58,893 bases of DNA from a bacterium (lineage in GTDB: Bacteria > JAMCPX01), in NCBI GenBank assembly GCA_037439545.1, contig JBBIVV010000013.1, positions 1 through 58,893 on the forward strand. Reading direction: 5' to 3'. The notes beneath the pieces are model-generated. The model was not told the origin of the DNA. It did no database searches and saw nothing but the letters and a program-made list of their open reading frames with translations. Positions within the stretch are counted from its first letter, which is position 1, and every line of letters starts with the position of its first letter. Below are positions 12,733 to 45,847 of this stretch, one piece after another. A program made the position numbers and the translations under genes.

Positions 12733-13854
12733 ATGCCTGATAGTATAACGAGGAAACTGCATGTTCCTGCATCCGATCGCTCACTCCTGAATATTGCGAA
12801 GAAAGTAGTCTCGGGCAAAAGGATCAGTAACGAAGACGCACGCATTCTACTTCAATCCAGCGATATTCATCTGATCGGCGCTATGGCTGACTATAAGAAG
12901 CAACAGGTGAGCGGAAAACTCGTATATTTTACCGTGAACAAGCAGATCAATTACACGAATATCTGCGGCGTTCATTGTAAGGTATGCGCATACGCAAAAG
13001 GCAAACATGCGAAGGACGCATACACCATGCCGATCGATGAAATTATCAGTGAACTTTCGAAATATAAAGACGGCCTTGACGAGGTACATATAGTAGGCGG
13101 GCTGCACCCCGATCTGCCGTTTGATTATTATACATCGATGTTGAGCAGCATACGTTCGCATTTTCCTGACATAACGATAAAGGCATTTACCGCAACGGAG
13201 ATAGGGTATTTTGTGAAGCTGTACGGCATGGATATTAAGGATGTGCTGAATGAACTCGTCGATGCAGGGCTCGACACTATGCCCGGTGGCGGTGCAGAGT
13301 TGCTGTCGGACGCTATCAGGTCGGAGTTGTTCAAGGGTAAAGAGTCAAAGGATAATTGGCTCGCGACACACGGAATAGCCCATTCACTGGGCATTAAAAC
13401 GAATGCAACCATGCTCTACGGCCATATTGAAACAGATGAAGATATCATCTTTCATCTTGAACAATTGCGTTCACTTCAGGATAACACATCCGGTTTCATG
13501 ACATTTGTGCCGCTCATCTTCCACCCGGAAAATACGTCTCTGCAAAACAGGGTGCACACTCCGGCCGGTATCAGAAAGTTGAAGATCATCGCCTTATCGA
13601 GATTATATTTAGATAATTTCCCTCATATCAAGGCATACTGGGTCATGATGTCAGAAGGCATTACACAGATAGCCCTGCATTTTGGTGCGGATGATATCGA
13701 CGGCACTATCGGTAATGAAAAGGTCACCCATGCCGCAGGTGCCCAAACCCCCGCCGGCTTGACAAAAGAGAGCATGATATCCATGATAAAGAATACGGGG
13801 TATATTCCGGCTCAAAGAGACGGGAAGTACAAGGTTATCAGGGTCTATAAATAG
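12733..13854 (+). CDS. mqnE: Aminofutalosine synthase (CofH/MqnE radical SAM)
   Basis: CGVHCKVC radical SAM motif, EVHIVGGLHP, MPGGGAE, NATMLYGHIET, HIKAYWVM; adjacent to mqnA. Confidence 0.85.
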   Translation: MPDSITRKLHVPASDRSLLNIAKKVVSGKRISNEDARILLQSSDIHLIGAMADYKKQQVSGKLVYFTVNKQINYTNICGVHCKVCAYAKGKHAKDAYTMPIDEIISELSKYKDGLDEVHIVGGLHPDLPFDYYTSMLSSIRSHFPDITIKAFTATEIGYFVKLYGMDIKDVLNELVDAGLDTMPGGGAELLSDAIRSELFKGKESKDNWLATHGIAHSLGIKTNATMLYGHIETDEDIIFHLEQLRSLQDNTSGFMTFVPLIFHPENTSLQNRVHTPAGIRKLKIIALSRLYLDNFPHIKAYWVMMSEGITQIALHFGADDIDGTIGNEKVTHAAGAQTPAGLTKESMISMIKNTGYIPAQRDGKYKVIRVYK

Positions 13855-13863
13855 GTGGGTGTT

Positions 13864-14649
13864 ATGAAACTTGCAAGAATGCCGTACATCAACGTCGATC
13901 CTTTTTATTACACGCTTGAACATGGTTCTGCTGAACGTACCATCGAACTTGTAACAGGCTATCCAAGACAGATCGGAAGACTTGCGGACAAACAGGATGC
14001 CATAGATGCGGGGCCTATATCTGTCATGGATTTTTTAAACCTGAAACAGAGCTATGAACCTCTGGGCAGCATGTGCGTTGCGGTAAAAGAGAAAGCAGGA
14101 AGCGTGACGCTGTTTTCCCGGACGCCTGCGAAAGACCTCAACGACCGTAAAATAGGCATAACATCACAGACTTCCACGTCAAAGGTACTTCTCAGGATTA
14201 TCCTCGAGCAAAGATATAATATAAAATCAGCTCTCTATCTTGATCAGCCGGACACCGGGGAAGTCGATGCATATTTGTTTATCGGCAACAACGCTCTGGT
14301 GAATGTCTACAGCGGGTTCAAGGGCTTCGAGTATGTATACGATCTTGGAGAGGAGTGGTACCACTGGACCGGACTTCCCTTTGTATTCGCCATCTGGGCA
14401 ATAAGAAAGGCCGTTCCTCAGAACGAAAAGGACAATCTGACGGCTATCCTGAGAAATTCCCTGGATATATTCTGGCATCATGAGAAAGAGATGGCGAATA
14501 AAAGGGCGGAAGAGCTGCATGTTCCTGCGTCTTTCATAGAAAATTACTGGCATCTGTTCATTTACAATCAAACATCTGTTGTAGATAAGAGTCTTACATT
14601 GTTTACCGGGCACGCCCGTGCAATAAAGGAGGTTTTTGCCAATGGATAA
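13864..14649 (+). CDS. mqnA: Chorismate dehydratase (menaquinone futalosine pathway)
   Basis: PYIN, SVTLFS, TSTS and DLGEEWYHWTGLPFVFAIW motifs. Start is ATG 13864 or GTG 13855. Confidence 0.85.
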   Translation: MKLARMPYINVDPFYYTLEHGSAERTIELVTGYPRQIGRLADKQDAIDAGPISVMDFLNLKQSYEPLGSMCVAVKEKAGSVTLFSRTPAKDLNDRKIGITSQTSTSKVLLRIILEQRYNIKSALYLDQPDTGEVDAYLFIGNNALVNVYSGFKGFEYVYDLGEEWYHWTGLPFVFAIWAIRKAVPQNEKDNLTAILRNSLDIFWHHEKEMANKRAEELHVPASFIENYWHLFIYNQTSVVDKSLTLFTGHARAIKEVFANG

Positions 14650-33780: not shown

Positions 33781-34846
33781 ATAATGCGGAATTGCGGTCC
33801 GGTTTATGAACGGACGCTATATGCAATGGATTGATATACGACCTGTAGGTAATACCGTACGATGTCCTTATCGCCTCGGGGACCACGAGAAAATTGAACA
33901 CCGGTCCTTGTTCGATGGTAATGTCCGTGTACTTGTCTCTTGTAAGTTCTCCATCGAGGGCATACCCGCATTCTGCTTTTATCTGTACTTGCCTTGCCGT
34001 TCCGTTGAATGCCCTCGGAGGGATCTGTTTGCCTGTTGAGAACGCCCTCAGATTTCTTATGACGACCCATGGGTCTGAAGCTGCCGCCAGAAAATAAAAA
34101 CTGTTAACACCTTTCGTATCAGGGCTGTAAAATGGCCGGAACCATAACAAAAGCCTCTGGAATACTCCGGCAATCGTCATAAGGTACTTTTCTTCGGGAT
34201 ACTTCTTCCCGTCTATGTAAATGTCCGCATTGAACTTGCTGTAGTATTTTCTTATCCTCGGATTCCCTATCATATAGCCGCCGATCGTTGTCGTAATCAG
34301 GTTGACAACCGTGCTGAAGGTAGGGTTTTCCTGCTTTGTAAAAAGATCCTGAATCTTATATACGATTCCATTGGTAAAGGCAAAACCGTACTTAATCCCG
34401 TTGCTTTTATCCGTAATTTTTAGCGGCATTACCGGCAGGAGCTGCATGGTCTCTTCTTCTTTGCCGTAAGCATCCAGGTAATGCATAAGTATTCTGACCG
34501 CATCGAGCGGATTTTTCCTGACCCCCATGTTGCCGGCAATCATGTTTGAAGTGCCGCCCCGCAGGGGGACGATGATCGGCAGGTCTTTTTCAGGCAGATT
34601 TTTTATCAACTCGGTAACGAGCCTCTGTAACGTCCCGTCTCCTCCATTGATCATCAAAAGGTTTACCCCTTCTTCCTTTATGAGGTGTAGTGCGGACGGC
34701 AGGTCCGATAGCGAATAGACATCGATAATCTTGCAGGTAGTATCGCTTGCAGCGGGAATAAAGGACAGGAATTTGTCTTTATTGTATTTATAACGCTTAT
34801 TTTTTCCGGAGTTCATATTGTTAAAGATTGCACACCTTAACTTCAT
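33779..34846 (-). CDS. Diacylglycerol-kinase-family protein
   Basis: N-SG, INGGDGT, GGTSNMIA and ALDGE motifs. Confidence 0.8.
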   Translation of the reverse strand: MKLRCAIFNNMNSGKNKRYKYNKDKFLSFIPAASDTTCKIIDVYSLSDLPSALHLIKEEGVNLLMINGGDGTLQRLVTELIKNLPEKDLPIIVPLRGGTSNMIAGNMGVRKNPLDAVRILMHYLDAYGKEEETMQLLPVMPLKITDKSNGIKYGFAFTNGIVYKIQDLFTKQENPTFSTVVNLITTTIGGYMIGNPRIRKYYSKFNADIYIDGKKYPEEKYLMTIAGVFQRLLLWFRPFYSPDTKGVNSFYFLAAASDPWVVIRNLRAFSTGKQIPPRAFNGTARQVQIKAECGYALDGELTRDKYTDITIEQGPVFNFLVVPEAIRTSYGITYRSYINPLHIASVHKPDRNSAL

Positions 34847-34895: not shown

Positions 34896-34932
34896 AAAAA
34901 AGGCAACACCTCTGAAAACAGAGGTGTTGCCT
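34896..34932 (-). terminator. Rho-independent terminator of the cyc2-containing operon
   Basis: Perfect 14-bp stem aggcaacacctctg/cagaggtgttgcct with a 4-nt loop, followed on the minus strand by a T run, 16 bp after the cyc2 stop. Confidence 0.88.
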
Positions 34933-34948
34933 GAAATAAGTTAACCTC

Positions 34949-36376
34949 TTAGAACAGATATTCGAGTTTTACCGCAGCTACATTGAAATCGCCCGCTGAA
35001 AGGCTGCTATTCCCATACTGTGCAGCTCCCACATTGTACTTGCTGAATATAGATTCCTCAATCAGCAGATTTACATTCTGAAATGCGTACCATGAGAGTC
35101 CAACAACCATTCCTGACAGATCGACGTCCTGCACCTGGGATGAACTACGGGAGAAATACTTAAAGTATGCGCCGTATGTCCTCTTATAATAATAATCAGC
35201 CATCAGTCCAATGCCGGTTCTTGAAACACTGGTGCCGTTGGCCGTATAGGGGTTTCCGTCAAATGCATCTGTACCGTAAAATTTGTTATCATTGTCATTC
35301 TGATAAACTATAAACAATTCGGCAAGATTATTGTCCGTTATCATCTGCACCTGTGCATCTATGCCATAATTGTAATAGTTATCCTTGTAATTCCCGATTG
35401 TTGAAGTAGTCGGTGCTTGCATGCTTTCTGTGCCGAAATAGCTGTATGCGCCCACTTCAGCGTAGACGTTGCTTAATTCCGGCAGATAATAGGCAAGACG
35501 CAAAGCCCCATCTTCACTGGCTGTCCCAAGAAAAGAGCCGCTTCCAGCTACATTACCCTGAACAAAGTTGTTCCCTGTCTGAGACAGTGTCGGGTGGTAC
35601 ACGCCTAAACTTGCGTAAACGCCGCCTGCATTAAAATCACCCCACATGCCATACAGCTCTCCGCCTTCCAGTTTTGCTGTGTTGGGATCAAAGAGCGTAT
35701 TATGGGTACTCATGGCCATAAGTGTCGATGTCAATCCCCACATACCGAATGTGTTTGAAGGATCACCCATATCCATTGCATCTTCGGCCCTCACACCATA
35801 TATGAGCCGTTTATCACCTATTGTAGTATCATTGCCGACAAGCGCAAGATCAAAAATACCGAGACCGAGACTTCCGCCTCCATCATCAATACCGGTCAGC
35901 TCGAGGAATGTACCGAGGTTGGATGTAATCTTGCCTGCTACGTACACACTTGAATCGCCGACAAGGTTCAACACATCTGATCCTCCGTAACCTGATGGAT
36001 AAGAAATAAAGTCCTGACCTGCCGTTACAACTCCTCCGGGAACGGTATGTTCTCCGCCTGCCTGGTTGTCCCATCTCGAAACTATCCTTACAGAAACCAT
36101 CGGAATTTTATTGATCTCGAGTCCCGGCATGTTGCTTGCCGAAGAATCCGATTTAACTGCATCTGATGTATCCATGGTATATCCATGCAGTTTAAAATCC
36201 CTGCCGAACGGCGTAAGATGCGGAAACACAGTGTGACATACATCGCATGAAAACCCCGTCTGTCTTGCAAAACTTGGAATGGCATGTGCATTTTTCACCC
36301 CTGATATGCTCACCGCAACGCCCAATCCAATCGCCCAAACCAAAACACTTACCCTCTGCAAACCTTTTTTCTTCAT
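34949..36376 (-). CDS. cyc2: Cyc2-like fused monoheme cytochrome c-porin (candidate outer-membrane iron oxidase)
   Basis: Signal peptide AHA| then IPSFARQTGFSCDVCHTVFPHLTPFGRDFKLHGY, the Cyc2 N-terminal signature. Single CxxCH, Gly/aromatic beta-strand-like body, C-terminal Phe (LEYLF), 475 aa. Confidence 0.85.
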   Translation of the reverse strand: MKKKGLQRVSVLVWAIGLGVAVSISGVKNAHAIPSFARQTGFSCDVCHTVFPHLTPFGRDFKLHGYTMDTSDAVKSDSSASNMPGLEINKIPMVSVRIVSRWDNQAGGEHTVPGGVVTAGQDFISYPSGYGGSDVLNLVGDSSVYVAGKITSNLGTFLELTGIDDGGGSLGLGIFDLALVGNDTTIGDKRLIYGVRAEDAMDMGDPSNTFGMWGLTSTLMAMSTHNTLFDPNTAKLEGGELYGMWGDFNAGGVYASLGVYHPTLSQTGNNFVQGNVAGSGSFLGTASEDGALRLAYYLPELSNVYAEVGAYSYFGTESMQAPTTSTIGNYKDNYYNYGIDAQVQMITDNNLAELFIVYQNDNDNKFYGTDAFDGNPYTANGTSVSRTGIGLMADYYYKRTYGAYFKYFSRSSSQVQDVDLSGMVVGLSWYAFQNVNLLIEESIFSKYNVGAAQYGNSSLSAGDFNVAAVKLEYLF

Positions 36377-36428
36377 TAATCTCCTCCTTAAAAAATTAGA
36401 TTTATGAACAGTATAACTTTTACTCCTC

Positions 36429-36830
36429 CTATTGCTTGTCCCCGGTACAGCTTCTGGTTACCGAACAAACGTCGCTTCCATTCAGCATCAAATAAACGGC
36501 GATTGAAAAAAATGCTATGTGTTCGAGTATATCGCCATAATCATGTATGCCAAGTGTGAACATAACGCCGATAAGCCATAGACCTGCATATACCGCGACA
36601 TACTCCGTATAAACGCCCAATATCATGAGCAGGGAAATCATACCATCGCTGAATCCGATAAAATGAACAAAAGTAACGGCACTTACCGGTAGAAAGTGTA
36701 TCACGAACGAGCCGTTCAACAGCTTGACGAACTCATCAGGAGCAAGGAATGCCTGTAAAGAATTTGCCAGAAACGCGCATGCAATGCCTATCCTTAAAAT
36801 TAAGGACTCATAATCTCTTAATGTTTTCAT
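36429..36830 (-). CDS. DoxX-like small membrane protein
   Basis: LILRIGIA start and four hydrophobic segments; inside the operon. Confidence 0.6.
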   Translation of the reverse strand: MKTLRDYESLILRIGIACAFLANSLQAFLAPDEFVKLLNGSFVIHFLPVSAVTFVHFIGFSDGMISLLMILGVYTEYVAVYAGLWLIGVMFTLGIHDYGDILEHIAFFSIAVYLMLNGSDVCSVTRSCTGDKQ

Positions 36831-36866
36831 GTTTTCCCTCCAACTATTTTATGATCTTTCCTTACT

Positions 36867-37739
36867 TTATTTGCCGGGATCTTTCGAGCTTACACCTGTT
36901 CTTGGTGTATATTCATAAGGCAGACTTACCTTCTTCCAGCTCAGCACGAGTATTGTCAGTGCCCGTGCCTGTTCATCCGTAAAGCCAAAATTCGGCATTA
37001 AACTGCCTTTTGTGACGGCTGAAGGGTCCTTGAAATGCTGGTACATCCAGTTAAACACGGTCTTCGGACCCTGCTCGATATTTGAGAAATCGAATATCTC
37101 CGGATTTTTATCGCCTTCAAAAGTCAGATCAGGCCCTATCCTGCCGCCCTGACCATTTATTATGTGGCATGCCGAGCAATTCTTTTCTTTGACCAGTTCT
37201 TCCGCCTGATTGATATAATCCATCCATGCTACATTCTGATTGTCCCTGTGACAGGCATTGCAGTTAATCTCCATGATATGCTCCGGGTGTTCCAGTCCGT
37301 ATTTTTCGCCAAGTTTCTTGTCGAGAAGCGGCTCGTCCCAATGTGTTACAAGCCCATGCGCATCCTTTACATCTGTCGCATATCCCTGGCCGCCATGACA
37401 TATAGTGCAGCCATAGTTCGAAAATTTATGATACTTCATGATGGGGAGATCCGGATGCGATGCAAACGGCTGCGAAACTTTCTCAAGCCCGGGTATATCA
37501 TACCCCTGATGACAGGTGGTGCACCGGTCAACTCTATTCAGGGACGGCAGGTATATCTGCTGTATACCTTTATCAATCGTGCGTGCCCTTTCCTGCCCGA
37601 TAGACAAGTCTGCTATCTTTATAAACCTGGTTTGATACTGTTTCCATTCGGGATGATTTTCCTTGTAAATAACGACAAGGGTAAGCAGAAACAACGATAC
37701 AGCACCTATAAACAATACTACCGGATCTTTTTTTAACAT
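36867..37739 (-). CDS. Membrane-anchored tetraheme cytochrome c (Rieske/cytb-associated)
   Basis: Start moved to ATG 37739 after GAGGAGG. N-terminal TM; CTTCH, CTICH, CNACH, CSACH; last domain class-I-like (GPDL...LMPNF). Confidence 0.9.
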   Translation of the reverse strand: MLKKDPVVLFIGAVSLFLLTLVVIYKENHPEWKQYQTRFIKIADLSIGQERARTIDKGIQQIYLPSLNRVDRCTTCHQGYDIPGLEKVSQPFASHPDLPIMKYHKFSNYGCTICHGGQGYATDVKDAHGLVTHWDEPLLDKKLGEKYGLEHPEHIMEINCNACHRDNQNVAWMDYINQAEELVKEKNCSACHIINGQGGRIGPDLTFEGDKNPEIFDFSNIEQGPKTVFNWMYQHFKDPSAVTKGSLMPNFGFTDEQARALTILVLSWKKVSLPYEYTPRTGVSSKDPGK

Positions 37740-37756
37740 ATATAATTCCTCCTCGC

Positions 37757-39082
37757 TTAGAACCTTGCCGGCATCTTTATCCACTGCTGCCAGGGCATAT
37801 AAAGGTGCCATGACGGGCCCCTCATGACTGCACCCACATAAATCAATGCAATGATTATGAAACAGATCAGCAGAAACAGGGCATTCTGAAATCTTCTGCT
37901 CTTGTGGAACCACACACCAATGGCTTCATCCGGGCTCTTGTCCATAAGGGGCCAGGCAACCGCGAATGCGAGCAAAACAGTCGGGATGAGTATTCCTCCA
38001 ATGAGTCCGCCGCTTATGGTAAACGACCTTGTCCTTATGGTTGTGTCGGCAACGAGTTCCTGAAGCCACAAAAAATACCAAGGTGCTTTTGCCGGGTTCG
38101 GCGTCCACATCAGACTTGCAGCTTCTTCAAGCGGGGCTTTTATAAAGAGCGCGAGACCCATGGTAATGGCGGTAACAAGAATAAAGATCATGATTATCCT
38201 TCGGGTTAAGTACGGTGAAGCGTTCACCGATGCGCCCCTTACCCTGTATTGGGTTATCGTCGGTGTAATTCCTGTTACTATTCCCATCAGGCTGTATGTT
38301 TTACCTTTTGCAACTACTTTATCCTGCATGATCCGCTCTGTGCCGAGTGCTTCTACTCCGGCCAGCCCACCGTCTTTCCGAATCCTCCACATGTGCCACA
38401 GTATCAATAAAAATATTATTACCGGCAGGAGAAACACGTGTGCGACATACCATCGTATCAGTGTGTTTTGATCGATGATTGTACCGCCGATCAATATCTT
38501 GCTGATGGCTGACCCCACGAGAGGTGCCGATAGGGCAATGTGATCGCCGATCGTTATTGCCCACAGGGCAAGCTGGTCCCACGGGAGCAGATAACCGGTA
38601 TACGACAGCACCATGGTGACGAGGAGCAGGGAAATGCCTATCCACCAGTTAAGCGGCCGGTAGCTTCCGACTATCTTCTCACTGTGCTTATAGGCACCTG
38701 TCAGAAAAACCCTCATAAGGTGCAGAAATACTGCTGCCACCATTAAATGGGCTGCCACTCTGTGAAGATCGCGTATAAACCATCCGTACGAAACGACGAA
38801 GTTTAAATCTTTAATACTCCAATACGCCCTTTCTACGGACGGAACATACAAAAACATCAGAATAAGGCCTGTTATGGTCAGTATCACAAACAATGCAAGT
38901 ATTATCGTCCCAAGGACCATCGAATAGCTGAAGGAAATGCTCTTCGTTGTTACTTTTGCAGGAAACCAGTGAAGTATGAAATTCCGGACCGTTGAGTCAG
39001 ATGCTTCCCTTTCTGTTTCCGGGGTGTACGTCCACGTCAGTTTTCTTATGATTTTTTTTAACTTTTCTTTCATCTCAGCCAC
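37757..39082 (-). CDS. Cytochrome b (b6 + subunit IV fused) of Rieske/cytb complex 1
   Basis: LHRVAAH...FLH, TGYLLPWDQ, VAH-x14-H and Qo-like NPAKAPWYF. Confidence 0.92.
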   Translation of the reverse strand: MAEMKEKLKKIIRKLTWTYTPETEREASDSTVRNFILHWFPAKVTTKSISFSYSMVLGTIILALFVILTITGLILMFLYVPSVERAYWSIKDLNFVVSYGWFIRDLHRVAAHLMVAAVFLHLMRVFLTGAYKHSEKIVGSYRPLNWWIGISLLLVTMVLSYTGYLLPWDQLALWAITIGDHIALSAPLVGSAISKILIGGTIIDQNTLIRWYVAHVFLLPVIIFLLILWHMWRIRKDGGLAGVEALGTERIMQDKVVAKGKTYSLMGIVTGITPTITQYRVRGASVNASPYLTRRIIMIFILVTAITMGLALFIKAPLEEAASLMWTPNPAKAPWYFLWLQELVADTTIRTRSFTISGGLIGGILIPTVLLAFAVAWPLMDKSPDEAIGVWFHKSRRFQNALFLLICFIIIALIYVGAVMRGPSWHLYMPWQQWIKMPARF

Positions 39083-39083
39083 C

Positions 39084-39611
39084 TCATACCTTTAATCTGA
39101 AGTTATGATCGACCGTCGTATTCGTATCAACGACGATCTGCCCGTCCGGCGCCATATAAAGCTTGAACCACGGGAGCGGCAGCGGTGCCGGCCCTGCATA
39201 AATATTCCCGTTCTCCCTGTATTTTGAACCATGACAGGGGCAATGAAATTCATAGGTCTCGGATACGGGTTTACCGGAAGATGAATCATAGGTCTTCGGC
39301 GGTGAGTACTGTGCAAGATTCACGGTACATCCAAGATGCGTACAAATGGCCGATATTCCGTGGAACATATCACCGTTTCTTATAATAAACAGCCGGTGCT
39401 CGGGCATAAACCTTACTCCTTCAGGAAAATCTGCCGGCATACCGATTTTAAATTTTGTCGGCGGTTCGTAAAGTACCTTTGGGAAAAGTGATTTCAAAGC
39501 CGCATAGCCCTGCAGCAAAAAACCTCCTGCTATGAAAGACCCGCCAAGATATGACAGGAATTTTCTTCTCGAAACCGGCGGCAGCTTTTCCTCTTCTTTA
39601 TTTTCCTGCAT
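39084..39611 (-). CDS. Rieske 2Fe-2S protein of complex 1
   Basis: Tat motif SRRKFL; CTHLGC and CPCHGSKY boxes; GPAPLPL. Confidence 0.95.
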   Translation of the reverse strand: MQENKEEEKLPPVSRRKFLSYLGGSFIAGGFLLQGYAALKSLFPKVLYEPPTKFKIGMPADFPEGVRFMPEHRLFIIRNGDMFHGISAICTHLGCTVNLAQYSPPKTYDSSSGKPVSETYEFHCPCHGSKYRENGNIYAGPAPLPLPWFKLYMAPDGQIVVDTNTTVDHNFRLKV

Positions 39612-41556
39612 TTACTTTCCCCTCCTTGACTATAATTTTTTCCATCGTTATTGCGGATGTCGGGCATATAATTGCGCACAATCCGCAGCGTATGCATTTC
39701 TCGTCATCTTTAAGCAGGACCGTTACCGGTTCATTGTTTTCATATCCGAGATTGTTATAAATATTTTTCCTTGTATCCTCGTCCAGATCGACTTCTTCGA
39801 TCGGGACAAATGCATAACAGTCCTCGGGGCATACTTGAGCGCACCTGCCGCAAATAATGCATAGATCCGAATTATAAATGGGACTCACATGACACTGAAG
39901 GCACCTTCCCCCCTGGATAATTGCCTCTTCTTCGCTGTACGATTGCTCCACTTCCTGCAAACCGATCCTTTTGTCCGGCTCGAGGAGCTGGGGTGTCTTC
40001 CTTTCATACACATCATAATCCTCAGGCATCCGGTATTGTTCGGTCCGCAGAACTTCGACCTTTACCTTATACTCTATCGTACTCTTCCTGTTCGAGAAAT
40101 ATTCATCTATCGCAACGGCCGCTTTTTTCCCATCGGATATCGCATCGATAAGGTTACGGGGGCCGAATGCAGCGTCACCGCCTGCAAAAATCCCCGGTGC
40201 AGTCGTGGCAAGCACCTTGGTATCTATCTTTATCGTTCCCCGCGGCGAGATCTCGATTCCGTCTTCTTTCTTAATAAAGGACAGATCGATCGCCTGTCCA
40301 ATTGCAAGAATGACCGAATCTGCTTCAAAGACCTTGGTGACCGACTCGTCAAATTTCGGGTTGAACATCCCCTTCTCGTCAAAAACGGACAGGACCTTTA
40401 TGAATTCGACTGCCTTGACCTTTCCGTTCTCACCTATGATGCGTTTCGGTCCCCATGAGGGAGAAAAAACTATGCCTTCATCCTTCGTTTCGACAAGTTC
40501 AGCTTTACCCTGAATGCTTCTGGCAGCAGGCATCTGATTCATCGACTCGAGACTTACGACATTGACCTCTATAGCACCTTCACGCAGTGCTGCCCTTGCT
40601 ACATCGAGTGTTTCATAAAGCCTTTGTTCCATGATATCGGACTCCGTCTCTGGAGCAGGAGGAGGCTTTACGACCTCCTTTTGAACGGTTTCAAGAAGCG
40701 TCCGCAGTGCATCTCTTGCAGCATCAAGTGCAACAAGCCCGCCGCCTATTACAACGACCCTCTTCCCGAGTTTATATTTCAATCCTTTGTTTCCTGCCAC
40801 AAGGTATTCAATGGCCTTAATGACGCCATCGAGATCCGTACCCTGTATGTTCAGACTTCGCCCCTTCTGCGCACCGACAGCTATAAACACCGCTTCATAT
40901 CCCTGTTTTCTGAGTTCGGTTATGCCGAAAGTATCTGTGATGGGCGTTTTATATTTTATCTCGACTCCGAGATCTACGATCTTCTGTATTTCTTTCTCGA
41001 GAACATAATTCGGCAGCCTGTAGCGCGGTATACCGAACCGCACCATTCCTCCGGCCGTATCGGAAGACTCAAACACGGTAACTTTATAACCGCTCAATGC
41101 AAGGTCGTGGGCGCAGGACAGACCTCCCACACCGGCACCGATAACAGCGACCTTTTTATTGTTCCTTTCGCGGTGAGAGAGAGAGGGCGCATCCCCTGTC
41201 CAGCCATGACTGTCCGGATGATAACCTTCAAATAATTTATTCTGCGTATCCGGCTGCCTGGACTCTACCCCGTAATTTTCGCATAAAAATTTCTTGAGAG
41301 AACGGATAGTGATCGGCTCATTGATGTTAACCTTGCCTTTTCTGCACGCATCTTCACAGGGAGCAGCACATACTCTTCCGCATACCGAGGCAAACGGATT
41401 CGGCGAGCGCGCTATTAAATATCCTTCTTCATACGCTTTCTTCGGAACGCTCTGGACATACATGCCCGCATCGGTACGAATAGGGCATCCCATCATACAA
41501 AGGACTTCCTCTCTGAATGACGGCAGGTTTCTTAAACCCACTTTATATTTACTCAT
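39598..41556 (-). CDS. FAD/NAD(P)-dependent Fe-S oxidoreductase (GltD/NfnB/DsrL-like) with C-terminal 2x[4Fe-4S]
   Basis: CMMGCP...CGRVCAAPCEDAC, GAGVGG, GGGLVALDAAR, FAGGD, RCLQC, CIICGRCAQVCP, CIRCGLCAIICP; no signal peptide. Confidence 0.9.
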   Translation of the reverse strand: MSKYKVGLRNLPSFREEVLCMMGCPIRTDAGMYVQSVPKKAYEEGYLIARSPNPFASVCGRVCAAPCEDACRKGKVNINEPITIRSLKKFLCENYGVESRQPDTQNKLFEGYHPDSHGWTGDAPSLSHRERNNKKVAVIGAGVGGLSCAHDLALSGYKVTVFESSDTAGGMVRFGIPRYRLPNYVLEKEIQKIVDLGVEIKYKTPITDTFGITELRKQGYEAVFIAVGAQKGRSLNIQGTDLDGVIKAIEYLVAGNKGLKYKLGKRVVVIGGGLVALDAARDALRTLLETVQKEVVKPPPAPETESDIMEQRLYETLDVARAALREGAIEVNVVSLESMNQMPAARSIQGKAELVETKDEGIVFSPSWGPKRIIGENGKVKAVEFIKVLSVFDEKGMFNPKFDESVTKVFEADSVILAIGQAIDLSFIKKEDGIEISPRGTIKIDTKVLATTAPGIFAGGDAAFGPRNLIDAISDGKKAAVAIDEYFSNRKSTIEYKVKVEVLRTEQYRMPEDYDVYERKTPQLLEPDKRIGLQEVEQSYSEEEAIIQGGRCLQCHVSPIYNSDLCIICGRCAQVCPEDCYAFVPIEEVDLDEDTRKNIYNNLGYENNEPVTVLLKDDEKCIRCGLCAIICPTSAITMEKIIVKEGKVNAGK

Positions 41557-41647
41557 GATAGACTATCCTTATTCAATAATATTACTCCCCCTCATTGCGC
41601 ACTCAGCGCGTAATGGGCCCCCTTAGAGTCTTTTATGCTTCCTCTAT

Positions 41648-42013
41648 CTAATTGTGAGCTTTGAAATAATCAATCAGAGAGTTAATTTCCCCGTCGGTTA
41701 AGCTCTGCTGAGGCATTGGTATGCCATACTGTTTTTCCAGCTCCTGTGAATGCTTGTCTGTTTTTAACATTGCGGTCGTGTTCTTCAGCCAGCGTTTAAT
41801 CCAGTCCGGACCCATGGTCTTTGCCACACCTTTGAGATCAGGCCCGACCAGCTTGCCTTTGCCTATGGTGTGACATGCCGTGCACCCTTTTGTTGCAAAA
41901 ACATCTTCACCTTTTTTTGCAAGAGTCTTTTCATTCCCTTTGCCCGCTGCAAATGCGCACACTGCAAATACCAAAGAACCGGAAACAAAGATTGTGGTCA
42001 ACATTTTTTTCAT
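41648..42013 (-). CDS. Periplasmic monoheme class I cytochrome c
   Basis: Signal peptide, CTACH, GPDL and distal Met in IPMP; GGAGG RBS. Confidence 0.92.
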   Translation of the reverse strand: MKKMLTTIFVSGSLVFAVCAFAAGKGNEKTLAKKGEDVFATKGCTACHTIGKGKLVGPDLKGVAKTMGPDWIKRWLKNTTAMLKTDKHSQELEKQYGIPMPQQSLTDGEINSLIDYFKAHN

Positions 42014-42252
42014 TATCGATTTCCCTCCATTAACTAATTTATAATAAATATCTGTAGCTTTTTCAATAAAAAAATTGTATTATGAGCAAATCAATCATAT
42101 TTATAAAATGAAACTCTATTAAATTTGTAATAGTTTTTTGTCAAGCTTTTTTTTACCTGCTTTTTTGATTATGACGTGCAATGAAAAAATTGCTTGACTA
42201 ATTAAATAAAAGTATGACTTTGTAACATACCCTTTTACAAGGACGTGTAACT

Positions 42253-42966
42253 ATGATGAAAAATATGAAGTATATAATACTGTTATTCGTAGTGCTTTTT
42301 TACGCTCCAGGCGTACAGGCGGACCAAAATGCCTGCGTTGCCTGTCACACCACCTTAAATACTGATCAGGATAAATCCGTCATGGATTGCTGGCAGCGTT
42401 CACTCCATAAACAGAACGGCATAACCTGCGACGCGTGCCACAGGGGTAATCCGGATATCGCGGCCGGCAATGTGAATCGCTTATCGAAAGAACAGTTTCT
42501 TGCCTTAAAAGCGCGCGCAATGTCTCCGGCCAAAGGGTTTATAGGCATACCCTCGTCAACGCAGATGTTTGACATGTGCGGACAGTGTCATAGTGATTCA
42601 GTCAACAGATATAAAAACAGTATTATGGGTGTTGCGTATCTCGACAAGAAAGGCGGCCCGTCCTGTACCGATTGTCATTCAGCCCATTATGTCATTATTC
42701 CCGATGTCCCGAAAACATGCGAAAAATGCCATAAAGATACGACTGGATTCGATCAGATAGACCCCATGAACGTGAACGATGCAACAGTGAGCGACCTTTC
42801 AAGAATAAGGATAAAACTTGCGGAAGAAAGGGTTAAGGGCAAAGAACCGCCGTTGTTCCCTGAAGAACTCGGCTCGTTCCAGATTGGATTTGTTGCATTC
42901 GGAGCAATCATTGTTTTGTTCATTATTGCTTACCTTATATTCATGTTGATAGAGAAAAGGAGGTAA
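42253..42966 (+). CDS. Pentaheme cytochrome c with C-terminal membrane anchor
   Basis: Signal peptide VQA|; CVACH, CDACH, CGQCH, CTDCH, CEKCH; C-terminal hydrophobic helix then EKRR. Confidence 0.9.
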   Translation: MMKNMKYIILLFVVLFYAPGVQADQNACVACHTTLNTDQDKSVMDCWQRSLHKQNGITCDACHRGNPDIAAGNVNRLSKEQFLALKARAMSPAKGFIGIPSSTQMFDMCGQCHSDSVNRYKNSIMGVAYLDKKGGPSCTDCHSAHYVIIPDVPKTCEKCHKDTTGFDQIDPMNVNDATVSDLSRIRIKLAEERVKGKEPPLFPEELGSFQIGFVAFGAIIVLFIIAYLIFMLIEKRR

Positions 42967-42967
42967 C

Positions 42968-43231
42968 ATGGGTTTTGAAGTCATCCACAGTAAGAAGCCG
43001 TCCTACTCAATAAGTGCAGCGATCACCATTACACTGTTGTCCCTTGCATCGCTCGTCATAAGTGTACTGTTCGCCTATTTGTTTATCACAGGAAAGAGCA
43101 CAAATTTTATCATAGGTATGATGCTGTCCGCAGAATTTCTCGTTGCAGGTATTATCCTTGTGGTGTATCTGAAATATTTTCTTGTATTCAGAGAGGTCTC
43201 TGAAGACAGGAAGGAGGAACTGTTATGGTAA
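42968..43231 (+). CDS. Small 2-TM membrane protein, probable subunit of complex 2
   Basis: AGGAGG RBS; two hydrophobic helices; tightly coupled to both neighbours. Confidence 0.7.
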   Translation: MGFEVIHSKKPSYSISAAITITLLSLASLVISVLFAYLFITGKSTNFIIGMMLSAEFLVAGIILVVYLKYFLVFREVSEDRKEELLW

Positions 43232-43833
43232 ATCAATCCGACACCGGAAATAAGGCGGGTATCACAAGAAGAAAATTTATACTCGGTGCAATTATCGTAT
43301 CTATCGCCGGGGCCTTCGGCTCCCTTCTGTCCGTTCTCAAGGTCTTGTCCCCTTCGAAAAAGGGCAGCGGCTATGTGTCTACGATCGCGGTGGGAGATCG
43401 GCTTGTTTATGCATCGGGCAGCAATATAGGTGCTGACCTGAAAGCAAGCTCATTGAATACCGGTGACGCTGTACTCGTATATCCAAAGTCCAAGTCATCG
43501 AATCCTGCAAACCTGGTACAGCTTATCAAGCTGAACGACTCCGACTTTAAAGCACCGACAGACGTTAAATTGACGGATAAAGGGTTTGTTGCTTATAGCG
43601 CGATATGCACGCACCTTGGATGTACCGTATCATGGGTAAAAAACGAAAGTGCGCCGGACACTTCATACACGGAATGCTTCTGTCACAACAGCATATTCAA
43701 TCCGGCAACGGGTGAAAAGGTAGAAGGCGGACCCGCACCGATACCGCTTGCGCAGATAGGCATTAAGGTGACGGATAACGATACGCTCGTCTTTACGAGC
43801 GATTTTACAGGCCCGATAGGCCCGCAGGTTTAA
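43225..43833 (+). CDS. Rieske 2Fe-2S protein of complex 2
   Basis: Tat motif TRRKFI; AYSAICTHLGC; variant box 2 CFCHNSIF; GGPAPIPL. Confidence 0.92.
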   Translation: MVNQSDTGNKAGITRRKFILGAIIVSIAGAFGSLLSVLKVLSPSKKGSGYVSTIAVGDRLVYASGSNIGADLKASSLNTGDAVLVYPKSKSSNPANLVQLIKLNDSDFKAPTDVKLTDKGFVAYSAICTHLGCTVSWVKNESAPDTSYTECFCHNSIFNPATGEKVEGGPAPIPLAQIGIKVTDNDTLVFTSDFTGPIGPQV

Positions 43834-43851
43834 TAAAAAGGGGATTATGCG

Positions 43852-45108
43852 ATGTTTAAATGGTTTGATGAGAGGCTTGAACTAAAAAAATTCAAAGAAA
43901 AGTTTTTATCCAAAACATTTCCGACCCACCCGACATTCCTCCTGGGTGAAATAGCCCTGTTCTCATTCGTGACACTCGTCATAACGGGCATATTTCTCGG
44001 ACTGCTCTATGAGCCGTCGTCAAAGATGGTTTCATTGTTCGGTGCAATGGTGCCGGCTGCTTATGCAAGTGTCGTAAGAATAGATCTGCTTCCCATGGGC
44101 ATGCTCATAAGGCGGATACATCACTGGAGTGCAATGATCATGATAGCTTCGATATTGGCACACCTTATGAGGGTTTTTTTCACCTCCGCTTACAGAAACC
44201 CGCGGGAGATAAACTGGTATGTGGGGCTCGGGCTCTTCGGCATTTCCTTGTTCGCTGCATTTACGGGCTATCTGCTGCCGTACAGCAATTTCTCCGTTAC
44301 AGCAACTTCCATCGGCTATTACATAGCAAAGTCGGTCCCGTGGATCGGCAACTGGATCTCAAGACTCGTTTTCGCCGGTGACTTTCCGTCCGATTCTACA
44401 GTCCCGAGGTTTTTCTTTTTACATGTCATGCTGATACCTGTCCTGCTTATCGGCACTATAGGGTTACACATGATGATCCTTATCAAGCAGAAACATACGG
44501 AACCCGCATCGAACAGGAACAAAAAAGAGGCTGAGAACGGCAAGAGGCTTATCGGCATACCCATCTGGCCTGAACAGACCGTTATCAGCATAGCATTCTT
44601 TTTCTTTCTGTTGTTTACCGTTGTTATTATATCGACGTTCATACCTTTAAATCCGATTGAGACCTACGGTCCGCCTGCGGCGGGTACTCCTGTCATGCGG
44701 CCCGACTGGTACTTCCTGGTCGTCTATGGATTTCTTAAATTGATACCCGGTAATTTAACATTCTCAATTCTCGGAGGGAAGATCACGCCGGAAACTATCG
44801 GCGGGGTTCTATTCCCCACGTTTATAATTCTCGTATTTGTACTGCTTCCCTTGCTCGATAAGGCAAAAGAGCCTCAACACTATATTACGAATCCGCTTCA
44901 CAGGCCATTCATGACGTCATTCGGCATTACAGGCGGTGTTTTCCTTACCATGTTTGTCGTTTCGGGTTACATTGACGTCCTGAAGATAGCACCAAGGACA
45001 ATGATCTATTATGTACTACTTGCAACAGCGGGAACGGGAATTCTATCCTACACTCTTCTCAGGTTTTATAATAAAAACAATGACGGAGGAAAAAATGTTA
45101 AACTCTAA
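43852..45108 (+). CDS. Cytochrome b (QcrB-like) of Rieske/cytb complex 2
   Basis: FPTHPTFLLGEIALFSF, RRIHHWSA...AHLMRVFF, PREINW, TGYLLP, FLH-x14-H and Qo motif PDWY. Confidence 0.93.
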   Translation: MFKWFDERLELKKFKEKFLSKTFPTHPTFLLGEIALFSFVTLVITGIFLGLLYEPSSKMVSLFGAMVPAAYASVVRIDLLPMGMLIRRIHHWSAMIMIASILAHLMRVFFTSAYRNPREINWYVGLGLFGISLFAAFTGYLLPYSNFSVTATSIGYYIAKSVPWIGNWISRLVFAGDFPSDSTVPRFFFLHVMLIPVLLIGTIGLHMMILIKQKHTEPASNRNKKEAENGKRLIGIPIWPEQTVISIAFFFFLLFTVVIISTFIPLNPIETYGPPAAGTPVMRPDWYFLVVYGFLKLIPGNLTFSILGGKITPETIGGVLFPTFIILVFVLLPLLDKAKEPQHYITNPLHRPFMTSFGITGGVFLTMFVVSGYIDVLKIAPRTMIYYVLLATAGTGILSYTLLRFYNKNNDGGKNVKL

Positions 45109-45847
45109 ATATACTCTTTCGCTATTCATTCTATTGATTACCGCGTCTATCCTCGGCATACAGGGCTACGCAGAGGCAAATAATTCCTGTATAAAATGCC
45201 ATACGGCCTTAACGAACAACAGTTTTGTCGGGACAAAGTCACATAGCTGGGAAGGTTCTATACATCAGGAGCATGGTGTCACCTGCGACAAATGTCACGG
45301 AGGCGACCCGGGTGCCGTAGAAGCGAACCTTGCGCACGTCGGCGTTTTCAGCTCGAGCAACGCGGACAGCAAGGTCTATTATAAAAACATTCCTTCGACC
45401 TGCGGTAAATGTCACGGCGCGGAGCTTTATAAATTTACACAGAGCTTTCACTATAAAAAACTCGAAACAACCGGTCAGGGGCCAAACTGTGTAACCTGCC
45501 ATGGCTCCATGGTTACGACAATCCTGCAACCGGATGATCTGGCAAATGTCTGCGAAAGATGCCACAACAGCAGAATAGGCGTCCTGCCTTACATTCCGCA
45601 AAAGGCAAAGACCGTCCTGTTATTGTTAAAAGAGAGCAGGTCGCTTATCCATGCGGATGAAAAGCTTTGCCGGTCGAAGGACGATCAAAAGATATTAAGT
45701 TCTGCGGAGGCAAATCTTTCTTCAGCGAGATTGGAATGGCACACATTCGATCTTGACGCAATTGTTCGGTATTTACAGGACGCAGATAATGCGCTGGAAA
45801 AACTATCTCTGCCAAAACAACCGGCCATCAAAAAGAAGCAGCCTTAG
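45095..45847 (+). CDS. Periplasmic pentaheme cytochrome c
   Basis: Start moved to ATG 45095 after GGAGG. Signal peptide AEA|; CIKCH, CDKCH, CGKCH, CVTCH, CERCH. Confidence 0.9.
   Translation: MLNSKYTLSLFILLITASILGIQGYAEANNSCIKCHTALTNNSFVGTKSHSWEGSIHQEHGVTCDKCHGGDPGAVEANLAHVGVFSSSNADSKVYYKNIPSTCGKCHGAELYKFTQSFHYKKLETTGQGPNCVTCHGSMVTTILQPDDLANVCERCHNSRIGVLPYIPQKAKTVLLLLKESRSLIHADEKLCRSKDDQKILSSAEANLSSARLEWHTFDLDAIVRYLQDADNALEKLSLPKQPAIKKKQP

Follow-up and report, generated by a model that had tools for sequence, protein, structure and literature searches.

The stretch of DNA analyzed here (the window) is a contig of 58,893 nucleotides, JBBIVV010000013.1 of the bacterial genome assembly GCA_037439545.1, and the system in question is a group of seven co-oriented genes on its minus strand. 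In order of transcription these encode a monohaem cytochrome c, an iron–sulfur flavoprotein, a Rieske protein, a cytochrome b, a tetrahaem cytochrome c, a small DoxX-like protein and a fused cytochrome-porin of the Cyc2 type (Table 1). An earlier reading of the letters alone (the original prediction) had proposed that the seven form one operon closed by a single strong terminator, and that their products might constitute an electron conduit across both membranes. The listing of open reading frames (ORFs) and their translations reproduce the genes, their order and their orientation; the intergenic gaps, recomputed from the coordinates, are 91, −14, 1, 17, 36 and 52 bp, the negative value being the overlap of the flavoprotein stop with the Rieske start. 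Pfam and NCBIfam models confirm six of the seven assignments, the Cyc2-like protein having no family match.

The terminator was likewise found: the hairpin at the operon end begins 16 nt past the cyc2 stop and is the only strong terminator-like site between positions 34700 and 42400. Ten terminator-like sites were observed in that interval, against 6.4 ± 2.5 in shuffled sequences; the nine others lie within genes. At the opposite end two promoter-like sites (42122..42094 and 42107..42079, minus strand) fall within the region common to this and a divergent operon, and ribosome-binding sites of good quality stand 5′ of the first cytochrome gene, doxX and cyc2. In database relatives, as in the stored gene call, the cytochrome b begins three codons later than its longest frame, so that the gap to the Rieske gene becomes 10 bp instead of 1.

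Table 1. Features of the seven-gene operon and its immediate surroundings (positions in the window)
Feature	Position	Strand	Details
Monohaem cytochrome c, periplasmic	41648..42013	-	121 amino acids (aa), signal peptide, CTACH at residue 44; first gene of operon
Fe-S flavoprotein, cytoplasmic	39598..41556	-	652 aa, no membrane helix
Rieske [2Fe-2S] protein, exported by twin-arginine translocation	39084..39611	-	175 aa; CTHLGC ... CPCHGSKY
Fused cytochrome b6 and subunit-IV-like protein	37757..39082	-	441 aa from GTG; 438 aa from ATG at 39073
Tetrahaem cytochrome c, membrane-anchored, in the cytochrome f/c1 position	36867..37739	-	290 aa, four CxxCH, one N-terminal membrane helix
DoxX-like small hydrophobic membrane protein	36429..36830	-	133 aa
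Cyc2-type fused cytochrome-porin	34949..36376	-	475 aa: signal peptide, IPSFARQTGFSCDVCH haem motif, porin-like barrel, C-terminal YLF
Intrinsic-terminator-like hairpin and T run, operon end	34901..34932	-	14-pair stem, 8 G-C pairs
Divergent promoter region common to both Rieske/cytochrome b operons	42014..42252		239 bp; sequence inspected, promoter-like sites
Second Rieske/cytochrome b operon, divergent	42253..45847	+	pentahaem c, DUF7318, Rieske, cytochrome b, pentahaem c

The monohaem cytochrome matches Pfam Cytochrom_C (1.4e-10) and has one CxxCH motif. The flavoprotein consists of an N-terminal Fer4_20 domain (4.5e-14), Rossmann folds for flavin adenine dinucleotide (FAD) and for nicotinamide adenine dinucleotide or its phosphate (NAD(P)) (Pyr_redox_2, 2.9e-28), and a C-terminal ferredoxin domain for two [4Fe-4S] clusters (Fer4); judging by its cysteine motifs, the N-terminal domain can bind two clusters and the ferredoxin domain two or more. 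Its best relatives in the Protein Data Bank (PDB) are NfnB-type modules (9bov, 5.6e-76; 9n5u, 2.6e-69; 5jca, 8.3e-59), which together with the Pfam matches bears out the NfnB/GltD type assigned to it originally; the ferredoxin domain is an addition. An identification with DsrL was rejected, because the dsrAB genes of this genome, on contig C10, have their own adjoining NfnB-like paralogue (C10:19414-20982), 29% identical to the flavoprotein of the window.

The Rieske protein (Pfam Rieske, 7.2e-11) bears the twin-arginine motif SRRKFL. Among all PDB chains its best matches are 9rk4 (9.4e-22) and 9rk3 (1.1e-18), ahead of b6f Rieske proteins. These two are Kuste4569 and Kustd1480 (PMC12954380), and the relation to the NAD(P)-linked Rieske/cytochrome b complexes of anammox bacteria that had been suspected is thereby substantiated. 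The potential of the Kuste4569 Rieske cluster has been measured at +303 mV, and the Ser/Tyr pattern of CPCHGSKY is linked to high potential (PMC12954380); the window protein has the same pattern as Kuste4569 and looks, to judge from it, like a high-potential Rieske protein.

The cytochrome b (Cytochrome_B, 1.7e-37) has seven predicted helices and also matches the ExtP and ExtQ models (1.2e-66 and 1e-20), in both cases below the model cut-off. Its haem ligands H107/H121 and H215/H230 are invariant, and PWYF replaces PEWY. Two further segments are conserved in 30/30 aligned sequences: one on the n-side near the N-terminus (residues 17–43, W..P.SERE....LHWFPAK), with an invariant His38, and WRxRKDGG after helix D (residues 232–239), in which Arg233 and Arg235 are invariant. 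Both are suggestive as candidate ligand or propionate partners of the extra inter-monomer haem predicted in anammox complexes, where AlphaFold3 models place an additional b haem between two cytochrome b chains, held by an N-terminal His43 or His62 (PMC12954380); His38 recalls these residues by position, the likeness having been drawn without direct alignment. A complex prediction for two cytochrome b chains (residues 10–441) with flavoprotein residues 518–652, run without controls, gave scores of 0.10 and 0.02 against a mark of 0.32, values that speak neither for nor against an association. With a tetrahaem cytochrome replacing monohaem c1 or cytochrome f, and a flavoprotein gene present, the set does not encode a canonical bc1 or b6f complex. 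The DoxX-like protein is barely above its Pfam cut-off (DoxX, 3.5e-5; 24.8 versus 23.6 bits).

The last gene has the architecture of Cyc2, as originally proposed. Its export signal, read from sequence and helix prediction, is a hydrophobic segment at residues 6–24 followed by NAHA/IP; the single CxxCH lies at residue 44; and an AlphaFold2 model (predicted local distance difference test 66.8, predicted template-modelling score 0.72) places a barrel at residues 93–474, the haem domain being of low confidence. The top Foldseek matches of this model are 16-stranded porins (OmpF, 3.5e-8; OprO, 7.6e-7); by sequence no solved relative was found, the matches (E 0.2 and 0.4) being at chance level. The N-terminus PSFARQTGxxCxxCH...LTPFG, which we take to resemble the published Cyc2 signature, is invariant in 19/19 aligned relatives, and a C-terminal Phe is common to them. 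A word-indexed search with the protein returned 82 proteins. Forty-three are 43–77% identical over nearly the whole length and carry the labels Deltaproteobacteria (metagenome-assembled genomes, MAGs), Kryptobacter, Ignavibacteriales, Hydrogenobaculum and Desulfurella; another 38, also full-length, are more remote (E 3e-22 to 2e-5), some of them called “cytochrome C”. For one homologue, 47% identical, the source database gives the name iron:rusticyanin reductase (annotation only), and the nearest ESM Atlas clusters are “cytochrome c family” proteins of 444–469 aa with no Pfam family. The window subfamily, which has no characterized member, is only 22–35% identical to the other Cyc2-like proteins linked to modules of this kind. 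Membership of the Cyc2 family is thus indicated indirectly, by architecture and by annotation.

Conservation was followed in a phylum set of 13 species genomes (G000 being the window genome), in which extended loci were read, several of them ending at contig ends. Eleven of the 13 have the tetrahaem subunit, 11 have a gene of the Cyc2 family, and nine have the flavoprotein (E ≤ 1e-100). The conserved order is cytc – flavoprotein – Rieske – cytochrome b – tetrahaem – cytc′ – doxX – cyc2, where cytc′ is a second monohaem cytochrome c, between the tetrahaem gene and doxX, without counterpart in the window. The first monohaem gene is found upstream of the flavoprotein gene in G008, G010, G007 and G002, and doxX stands between a cytochrome c gene and cyc2 in all phylum relatives; it is absent from the Binatia and metagenome versions described below. 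In seven of the 11 module-bearing genomes (G000, G008, G007, G011, G003, G005 and G010) cyc2 follows the module. Two more end before cyc2 is reached; in one of these, G006, the missing cytc′–doxX–cyc2 piece terminates another contig. The seven genes thus behave as a conserved unit whose order is kept across the phylum, in agreement with the single operon first proposed, and we consider it probable that they are one functional unit.

The same phylum holds other arrangements of these genes. At G001:C89:1115-3737 (L106) and on G002:C74 (L105) there is a divergent Rieske – cytochrome b – tetrahaem set, 38–47% identical; no flavoprotein match occurs in the 12 kb of L106, and L105 ends 190 bp past its Rieske gene, too short to tell. 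This set would be a flavoprotein-less cousin of the module. A Cyc2 paralogue, 60% identical, stands alone in the window genome (G000:C73:2087-3448, L002), with orthologues at L107 and L110-L112; the gene after it encodes a small outer-membrane beta-barrel of ∼240 aa (OMP_b-brl, 4.9e-5, below cut-off), and the lone paralogue also occurs in G004, a genome without the flavoprotein module. At G000:C1:51684-52940 (L114 7685-8941) the first ∼70 residues of a 418-aa ORF match the Cyc2 haem domain (E 2e-10). This ORF lies directly 3′ of genes for a di-haem cytochrome c peroxidase (CCP_MauG, 3.8e-61) and a PAS/HD-domain protein, and may encode a peroxide-linked relative of the porin-cytochrome.

The combination is not unique to the window: it recurs in other phyla. 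Genome contigs were scanned with a Cyc2 alignment (80 loci kept of 595 confirmed relatives) and metagenome contigs with a flavoprotein alignment (80 kept of 549). Three genome loci (L004, L005 and L007) have the window-type order, and in three MAGs labelled Candidatus Binatia (L049, L062 and L071) a Cyc2-like gene stands beside the module in the order Cyc2-like gene, BamE-like gene, cytc, flavoprotein, Rieske, cytochrome b, pentahaem cytochrome. Seven further Cyc2 loci have a Rieske/cytochrome b pair of a different type within 10 kb. Among the metagenome loci with at least 3.3 kb downstream, the four-gene core (flavoprotein, Rieske, cytochrome b, tetrahaem c) is complete in 38 of 39. A Cyc2-like gene on the same strand, detected with a hidden Markov model (HMM) built from 82 Cyc2-family proteins, accompanies the flavoprotein gene in 13 of the 80 metagenome loci and in five of the 18 that are fully informative (at least 2.5 kb upstream and 5.5 kb downstream). 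Co-location of cyc2 with the module, which the original prediction had put forward for checking in relatives, is therefore a recurrent feature. No cultured organism is named among the top 120 matches of the flavoprotein and cytochrome b searches.

In the pentahaem cytochrome of the Binatia loci the tetrahaem subunit is extended at its C-terminus by a monohaem domain homologous to the product of the window's first gene; on the Rosetta-stone principle, this hints at docking of the monohaem cytochrome on the tetrahaem subunit. Fusion sites were noted at L062 16109-17329 (five CxxCH motifs), in L071 and at L098 9615-10835.

A maximum-likelihood tree was computed for 78 flavoproteins, with two paralogues of the window genome as its root. 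Cyc2-linked modules appear in it at five places: in two clades that branch early, at the lone locus L186, in the Binatia clade and in the window lineage. The last groups with a Cyc2-free crown clade of 39 entries, the enclosing clade having a support of 99 in the approximate likelihood-ratio test (SH-aLRT). In one of the early clades cyc2 and the flavoprotein gene are separated by a cupredoxin gene in 3/3 loci tested (L173, L181 and L189; 30 of 75 listed ORFs examined), and the cytochrome b is split. In a sister clade of the Binatia modules a secreted protein of ∼512–545 aa is encoded upstream of the flavoprotein (L141 7641-9263, L180 7627-9264, L184 7684-9222), with an N-terminal coiled coil, a C-terminal ...F(T/L)(I/V)GF, no haem motif and no Pfam match. 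A hidden Cyc2 was rejected for these three, which have no CxxCH and match the HMM no better than E 0.2; they resemble coiled-coil porins without haem, in the position that Cyc2 takes elsewhere.

What the core serves when Cyc2 is not beside it bears on the direction of electron flow. In the 13 fully informative loci without Cyc2 (35 of 107 listed ORFs examined), a NosZ gene with nos_propeller and cupredoxin domains follows directly on the tetrahaem gene in eight, one of these being a fragment; NosD is found in eight loci, one of them without detected NosZ, making nine of the 13 nos-linked in all. No nos genes were found among the examined ORFs of the remaining four, three of which carry the haem-less coiled-coil outer-membrane protein upstream. 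Because nosZ or nosD follows the same core in nine of 13 loci, the core must there carry electrons outward from quinol. By analogy, these NosZ-feeding homologues favour outward flow in the window operon. The window flavoprotein and fused cytochrome b are 47–57% identical to their counterparts in the NosZ-type modules, versus 41–49% to those of the Cyc2 clusters with split cytochrome b and cupredoxin. In the window genome, which is 98% complete, nos_propeller gave no match, though control genomes likewise gave none, and tblastn with the NosZ proteins of L129 and L161 found nothing. No homologue of the cupredoxin was found there either. In the absence of nosZ and of a cupredoxin homologue from this genome, Cyc2 is the operon's only terminal component.

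The genome itself (2.32 Mb in 88 contigs, ∼46% G+C) contains only two Rieske/cytochrome b loci, both in the window and divergently transcribed. The second operon encodes a pentahaem c7-like cytochrome, a DUF7318 membrane protein, a Rieske protein, a 418-aa cytochrome b and a second pentahaem cytochrome; the divergent pairing is kept in G008 and G002, and the two operons are possibly linked in function. Genes for an MqnC/CofH-like radical SAM protein and for a VitK2_biosynth protein of MqnA/D type (window 12733-14649, plus strand) indicate, by their assignment, a menaquinone made by the futalosine route. Elsewhere lie dsrA (above cut-off) and dsrB with their adjoining NfnB-like paralogue, in a DsrL-type arrangement (G000:C10:19414-23790); a haem-copper oxidase gene (COX1 1.9e-64, 440 aa; G000:C23:30078-32096, L115 8078-10096), of cbb3 or nitric oxide reductase type, preceded by a gene for a 227-aa cytochrome c with FixO-like and cbb3-type domains; a bd oxidase 4 kb upstream of it; and two complex-I-type loci. 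The gene content looks like that of a sulfur-cycling anaerobe; with dsrAB and the DsrL-like paralogue, the bd oxidase and the two complex-I-type loci, both lifestyles considered below, electron export to an oxidant such as Fe(III) and oxidation of Fe(II), are conceivable. The name Candidatus Acidulodesulfobacterales (SZUA-79), with its acidic habitat, was not adopted: the AP1-4 genomes have 30–37% G+C, versus ∼46% here.

From these genes we infer the formation of a complex, the direction of flow through it, NAD(P) as its cytoplasmic partner and iron as its partner outside. The seven products would make up one respiratory module spanning both membranes, built on an inner-membrane Rieske/cytochrome b complex of the type known from anammox and from the supply of NosZ. 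A high-potential periplasmic branch would lead from the Rieske cluster to the membrane-anchored tetrahaem cytochrome, the soluble monohaem cytochrome and the single haem of the Cyc2-type porin; a low-potential cytoplasmic branch would run from the b haems through four [4Fe-4S] clusters and FAD to NAD(P). Menaquinol would be oxidized at the outer quinol site and its electron pair split (quinol bifurcation): one electron would pass downhill and leave by way of Cyc2 for an oxidant in the periplasm or outside the cell, Fe(III) being the most plausible, and its drop in energy would drive the second through the b haems into the flavoprotein, reducing NAD(P)+. Such outward bifurcation, with c-type haems and Cyc2 leading to an oxidant such as Fe(III), is the reading that we put forward, tentatively and at somewhat less than an even chance.

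In the established chemistry of the Q cycle, quinone at the outer quinol site is the redox partner of the Rieske cluster and of the low-potential b haem alike. For this reason electrons from Cyc2 cannot pass straight through the complex to the flavoprotein. The conduit of the original prediction is therefore upheld in part: the relation to the anammox complexes and the single unit stand, and the linear wire from Cyc2 through the complex to NAD+ conflicts with the chemistry of the quinol site. Such a complex could work in either of two ways: it could bifurcate quinol, sending one electron out to Cyc2 and the other in to NAD(P)+, or carry out the reverse reaction. Four points favour the outward mode: terminal reductases are supplied by homologous cores, the Rieske protein has the look of a high-potential one, genes for menaquinone synthesis are close by, and Cyc2 is the sole terminal component. 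Quinol bifurcation to NAD(P)+ has been proposed for anammox (PMC12954380), and Cyc2 has been proposed as a terminal Fe(III) reductase in Acidithiobacillus ferrooxidans (PMC8790237).

Several observations weigh against outward bifurcation to Fe(III). Every characterized member of the Cyc2 family is an Fe(II) oxidase (PMC7029218, PMC13741234), and the haem-copper oxidase with its cytochrome c, together with the bd oxidase, makes a downhill route from Fe(II) to O2 possible. The haem-cn motif CxGG of the anammox complexes, a site of b6-type cytochromes b (Dibrova subfamilies G/M; motif as defined in PMC5600118), is absent from the cytochrome b, where the position reads SMVLG and Cys is missing in 30/30 aligned sequences; because of this the path from b haem to iron–sulfur cluster is a putative one. 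The flavoprotein may use either nucleotide, and its real partner might be ferredoxin instead of NAD(P). A promoter-like site inside doxX (36553..36526, 10/12 matches) keeps a separate cyc2 transcript possible. Two of the 11 module-bearing genomes, G009 and G001, show no link to cyc2: in G009, a single genus, the module is on one contig, and cyc2 with a cytochrome c gene lies beside the second Rieske/cytochrome b operon on another. The nearest Cyc2 homologues outside the phylum (L009-L018, labelled Bacteroidota, Kryptoniota, Ignavibacteriales, Desulfurella and Hydrogenobaculum) have no flavoprotein module in their available flanks, and the branch that joins the window lineage to the NosZ-linked crown has an SH-aLRT of 88, a moderate support.

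The precedent of the characterized Fe(II) oxidases leads to a different account, in which Cyc2 would oxidize external Fe(II) and feed the periplasmic c cytochromes, with most electrons going on to the cbb3-like oxidase. The second Rieske/cytochrome b complex, reversed by the proton-motive force, would make menaquinol; the flavoprotein complex would then bifurcate it, one electron returning to the c pool and one reaching NAD(P)+, so that both complexes together replace the uphill route through bc1 and complex I. Characterized Cyc2 and Cyt572 do oxidize Fe(II) (PMC7029218, PMC13741234), and the haem-copper oxidase with its cytochrome c partner, the preserved divergent pairing of the genome's only two Rieske/cytochrome b operons, the position of cyc2 beside the second operon in G009 and the cupredoxin between cyc2 and the flavoprotein gene in two basal clades, which recalls Cyc2–rusticyanin, all fit this account. 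However, a reversed Q cycle from a cytochrome at the level of Fe(II) to menaquinone (about −70 mV) would be energetically very demanding, the two complex-I-type loci could carry out the last step, dsrAB and the general look of the organism suggest a sulfur-cycling anaerobe, and elsewhere the homologous core serves a terminal reductase, NosZ. We regard Fe(II) uptake with an uphill branch as rather unlikely, if a serious contender. With the module as such retained, its outside partner might still be something other than iron: Mn, Cu, humic quinones, sulfur or oxygen species, or other outer-membrane cytochromes. The window subfamily of Cyc2 is remote from the other module-linked ones, the third ORF with a Cyc2-like N-terminus adjoins a di-haem cytochrome c peroxidase, and the core takes varied terminal partners, NosZ in relatives and an HAO-like protein in anammox (PMC12954380). 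Set against this are the homologue annotated as iron:rusticyanin reductase and the design itself, a single haem within a small porin being linked to dissolved metal ions (PMC9040806), and we judge a non-iron partner improbable.

The Fe(III)-reduction option of the original prediction would run the complex in reverse or as a short circuit, from NAD(P)H through the flavoprotein and the b haems to the Rieske protein, c haems and Cyc2, or to the quinone pool; acting as an NAD(P)H:cytochrome c or NAD(P)H:quinone oxidoreductase, the complex would then discharge reductant onto Fe(III) outside the cell. Cofactor chains are reversible in principle, the flavoprotein has nucleotide and FAD folds of the NfnB/GltD type, and such use has been discussed for anammox, where it was judged unlikely (PMC12954380). 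Here about 0.5 V or more would be lost, and electrons crossing outward through the b haems would run down the membrane potential; complex-I-type enzymes are available for the oxidation of NADH; and the conserved quinol-site motif PWYF and the Rieske subunit argue that quinol is the substrate, all of which makes reverse use very unlikely in our view. Equally slim is the chance that the genes are co-located without being coupled, cyc2 and doxX being a separate unit downstream of the Rieske/cytochrome b operon and the flavoprotein a free cytoplasmic enzyme. The promoter-like site within doxX and 5′ of cyc2, the separation of cyc2 from the module in G009 and the lone Cyc2 paralogues at G000:C73 and in G004 would be in keeping with it, but the pairing recurs in five clades of the tree with two different gene orders, the gaps are short and no terminator lies within the operon, the flavoprotein gene keeps its place in 38 of 39 cassettes, and subunits of the anammox homologues co-migrate (as cited in PMC12954380).

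Outward bifurcation invites a wider view, a distinct but tentative possibility, in which the core is a plug-and-play quinol-bifurcating engine that makes NAD(P)H without complex I. Its other electron would go to any strong oxidant within reach of the periplasmic adaptor: to N2O by way of NosZ, to nitrite through the HAO-like protein of anammox, and here to extracellular Fe(III) by way of Cyc2. If so, Cyc2 would in these lineages be an outlet for iron reduction, and iron respiration would be wired directly to the cell's NAD(P)H pool. The gene cyc2 serves as a marker for microbial iron oxidation in metagenomes, and if outward flow is true here, “iron oxidizer” calls for such lineages could be reversed. 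Cyc2 protein has been detected from sulfate-reducer-like MAGs of Candidatus Acidulodesulfobacterales (SZUA-79) at depths where iron oxidation was judged unlikely (PMC13594681); outward flow could explain such cases, whether or not the window genome belongs to that lineage. For anammox it has been hypothesized that NAD(P)H is made from quinol by bifurcation at the quinol site, an idea to which the operon would add a new electron sink, and the window, NosZ-linked and cupredoxin-type versions offer a comparative series for testing the mechanism.

The operon is real and conserved: in gene content, order and tight spacing, and by homology to the anammox and NosZ-linked modules, it is a variant of a known but biochemically untested kind of complex. 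That the combination was unfamiliar as a described system, as first remarked, agrees with the full-text literature searched (supplements excluded), in which we found no description of Cyc2 encoded with a flavoprotein-bearing Rieske/cytochrome b complex; nor is there one in the excerpts of PMC13741234, PMC10654088, PMC9040806, PMC6776010 and PMC13594681. Iron-oxidation genes of Leptospirillum are not clustered (PMC10654088), and cytochrome b genes are said to neighbour similar oxidoreductase genes “in many other cases” beyond anammox, Cyc2 going unmentioned (PMC5600118).

The closest known systems are the complexes of Kuenenia stuttgartiensis encoded by Kuste4569-4574 and Kustd1480-1485 (Kartal 2013 and de Almeida 2016, as cited in PMC12954380; Hauser 2025, PMC12954380). 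Like these, the operon joins a cytoplasmic iron–sulfur flavoprotein of NAD(P) type, a Rieske protein, a b6-type cytochrome b with a subunit-IV-like part and a multihaem c that replaces cytochrome f, and it provides four iron–sulfur cluster sites between the membrane and FAD, as in the published AlphaFold3 models (PMC12954380). It differs in having no HAO-like octahaem partner, a tetrahaem rather than a hexa- or octahaem c, and a cytochrome b fused into one seven-helix chain without the CxGG haem-cn cysteine; its terminal partner is an outer-membrane porin of the Cyc2 type rather than a nitrogen-oxide enzyme, and the organism is not an anammox bacterium. The modules of clade II (atypical) nosZ share with it the four-gene core, its order and the fused cytochrome b at the identities given above; in the window doxX and cyc2 follow the tetrahaem gene, with no nosZ or nosD adjacent.

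In A. ferrooxidans the chain of Cyc2, rusticyanin, CycA1, bc1 (petI) and NDH-1 likewise leads from an outer-membrane monohaem porin-cytochrome through periplasmic carriers to a Rieske/cytochrome b complex and NAD(H) (PMC8790237, PMC13741234). Its parts lie in separate operons (rus, petI and nuo) and NAD+ is reduced by complex I via the ubiquinone pool, whereas the window has everything in one operon, an NAD(P) module on the bc-type complex and no rusticyanin. The conserved extHIJKLMNOPQS cluster of Geobacter sulfurreducens also joins a porin-like protein of the outer membrane, c cytochromes, a Rieske protein (ExtO) and a b cytochrome (ExtP/ExtQ), but with the haem-less ExtI, cytochromes of 10 and 12 haems, a rhodanese and no flavoprotein (PMC5877670). 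The cupredoxin-type Cyc2 operons, finally, share with the window the encoding of a Cyc2-type porin together with an NAD(P)-flavoprotein-bearing Rieske/cytochrome b complex. There cyc2 comes first, followed by a blue-copper protein, a split cytochrome b and a cytochrome with seven or more haem domains; in the window, which has no copper protein, cyc2 comes last after the DoxX-like gene, the cytochrome b is fused and the flavoprotein branches with those of the NosZ-type modules.

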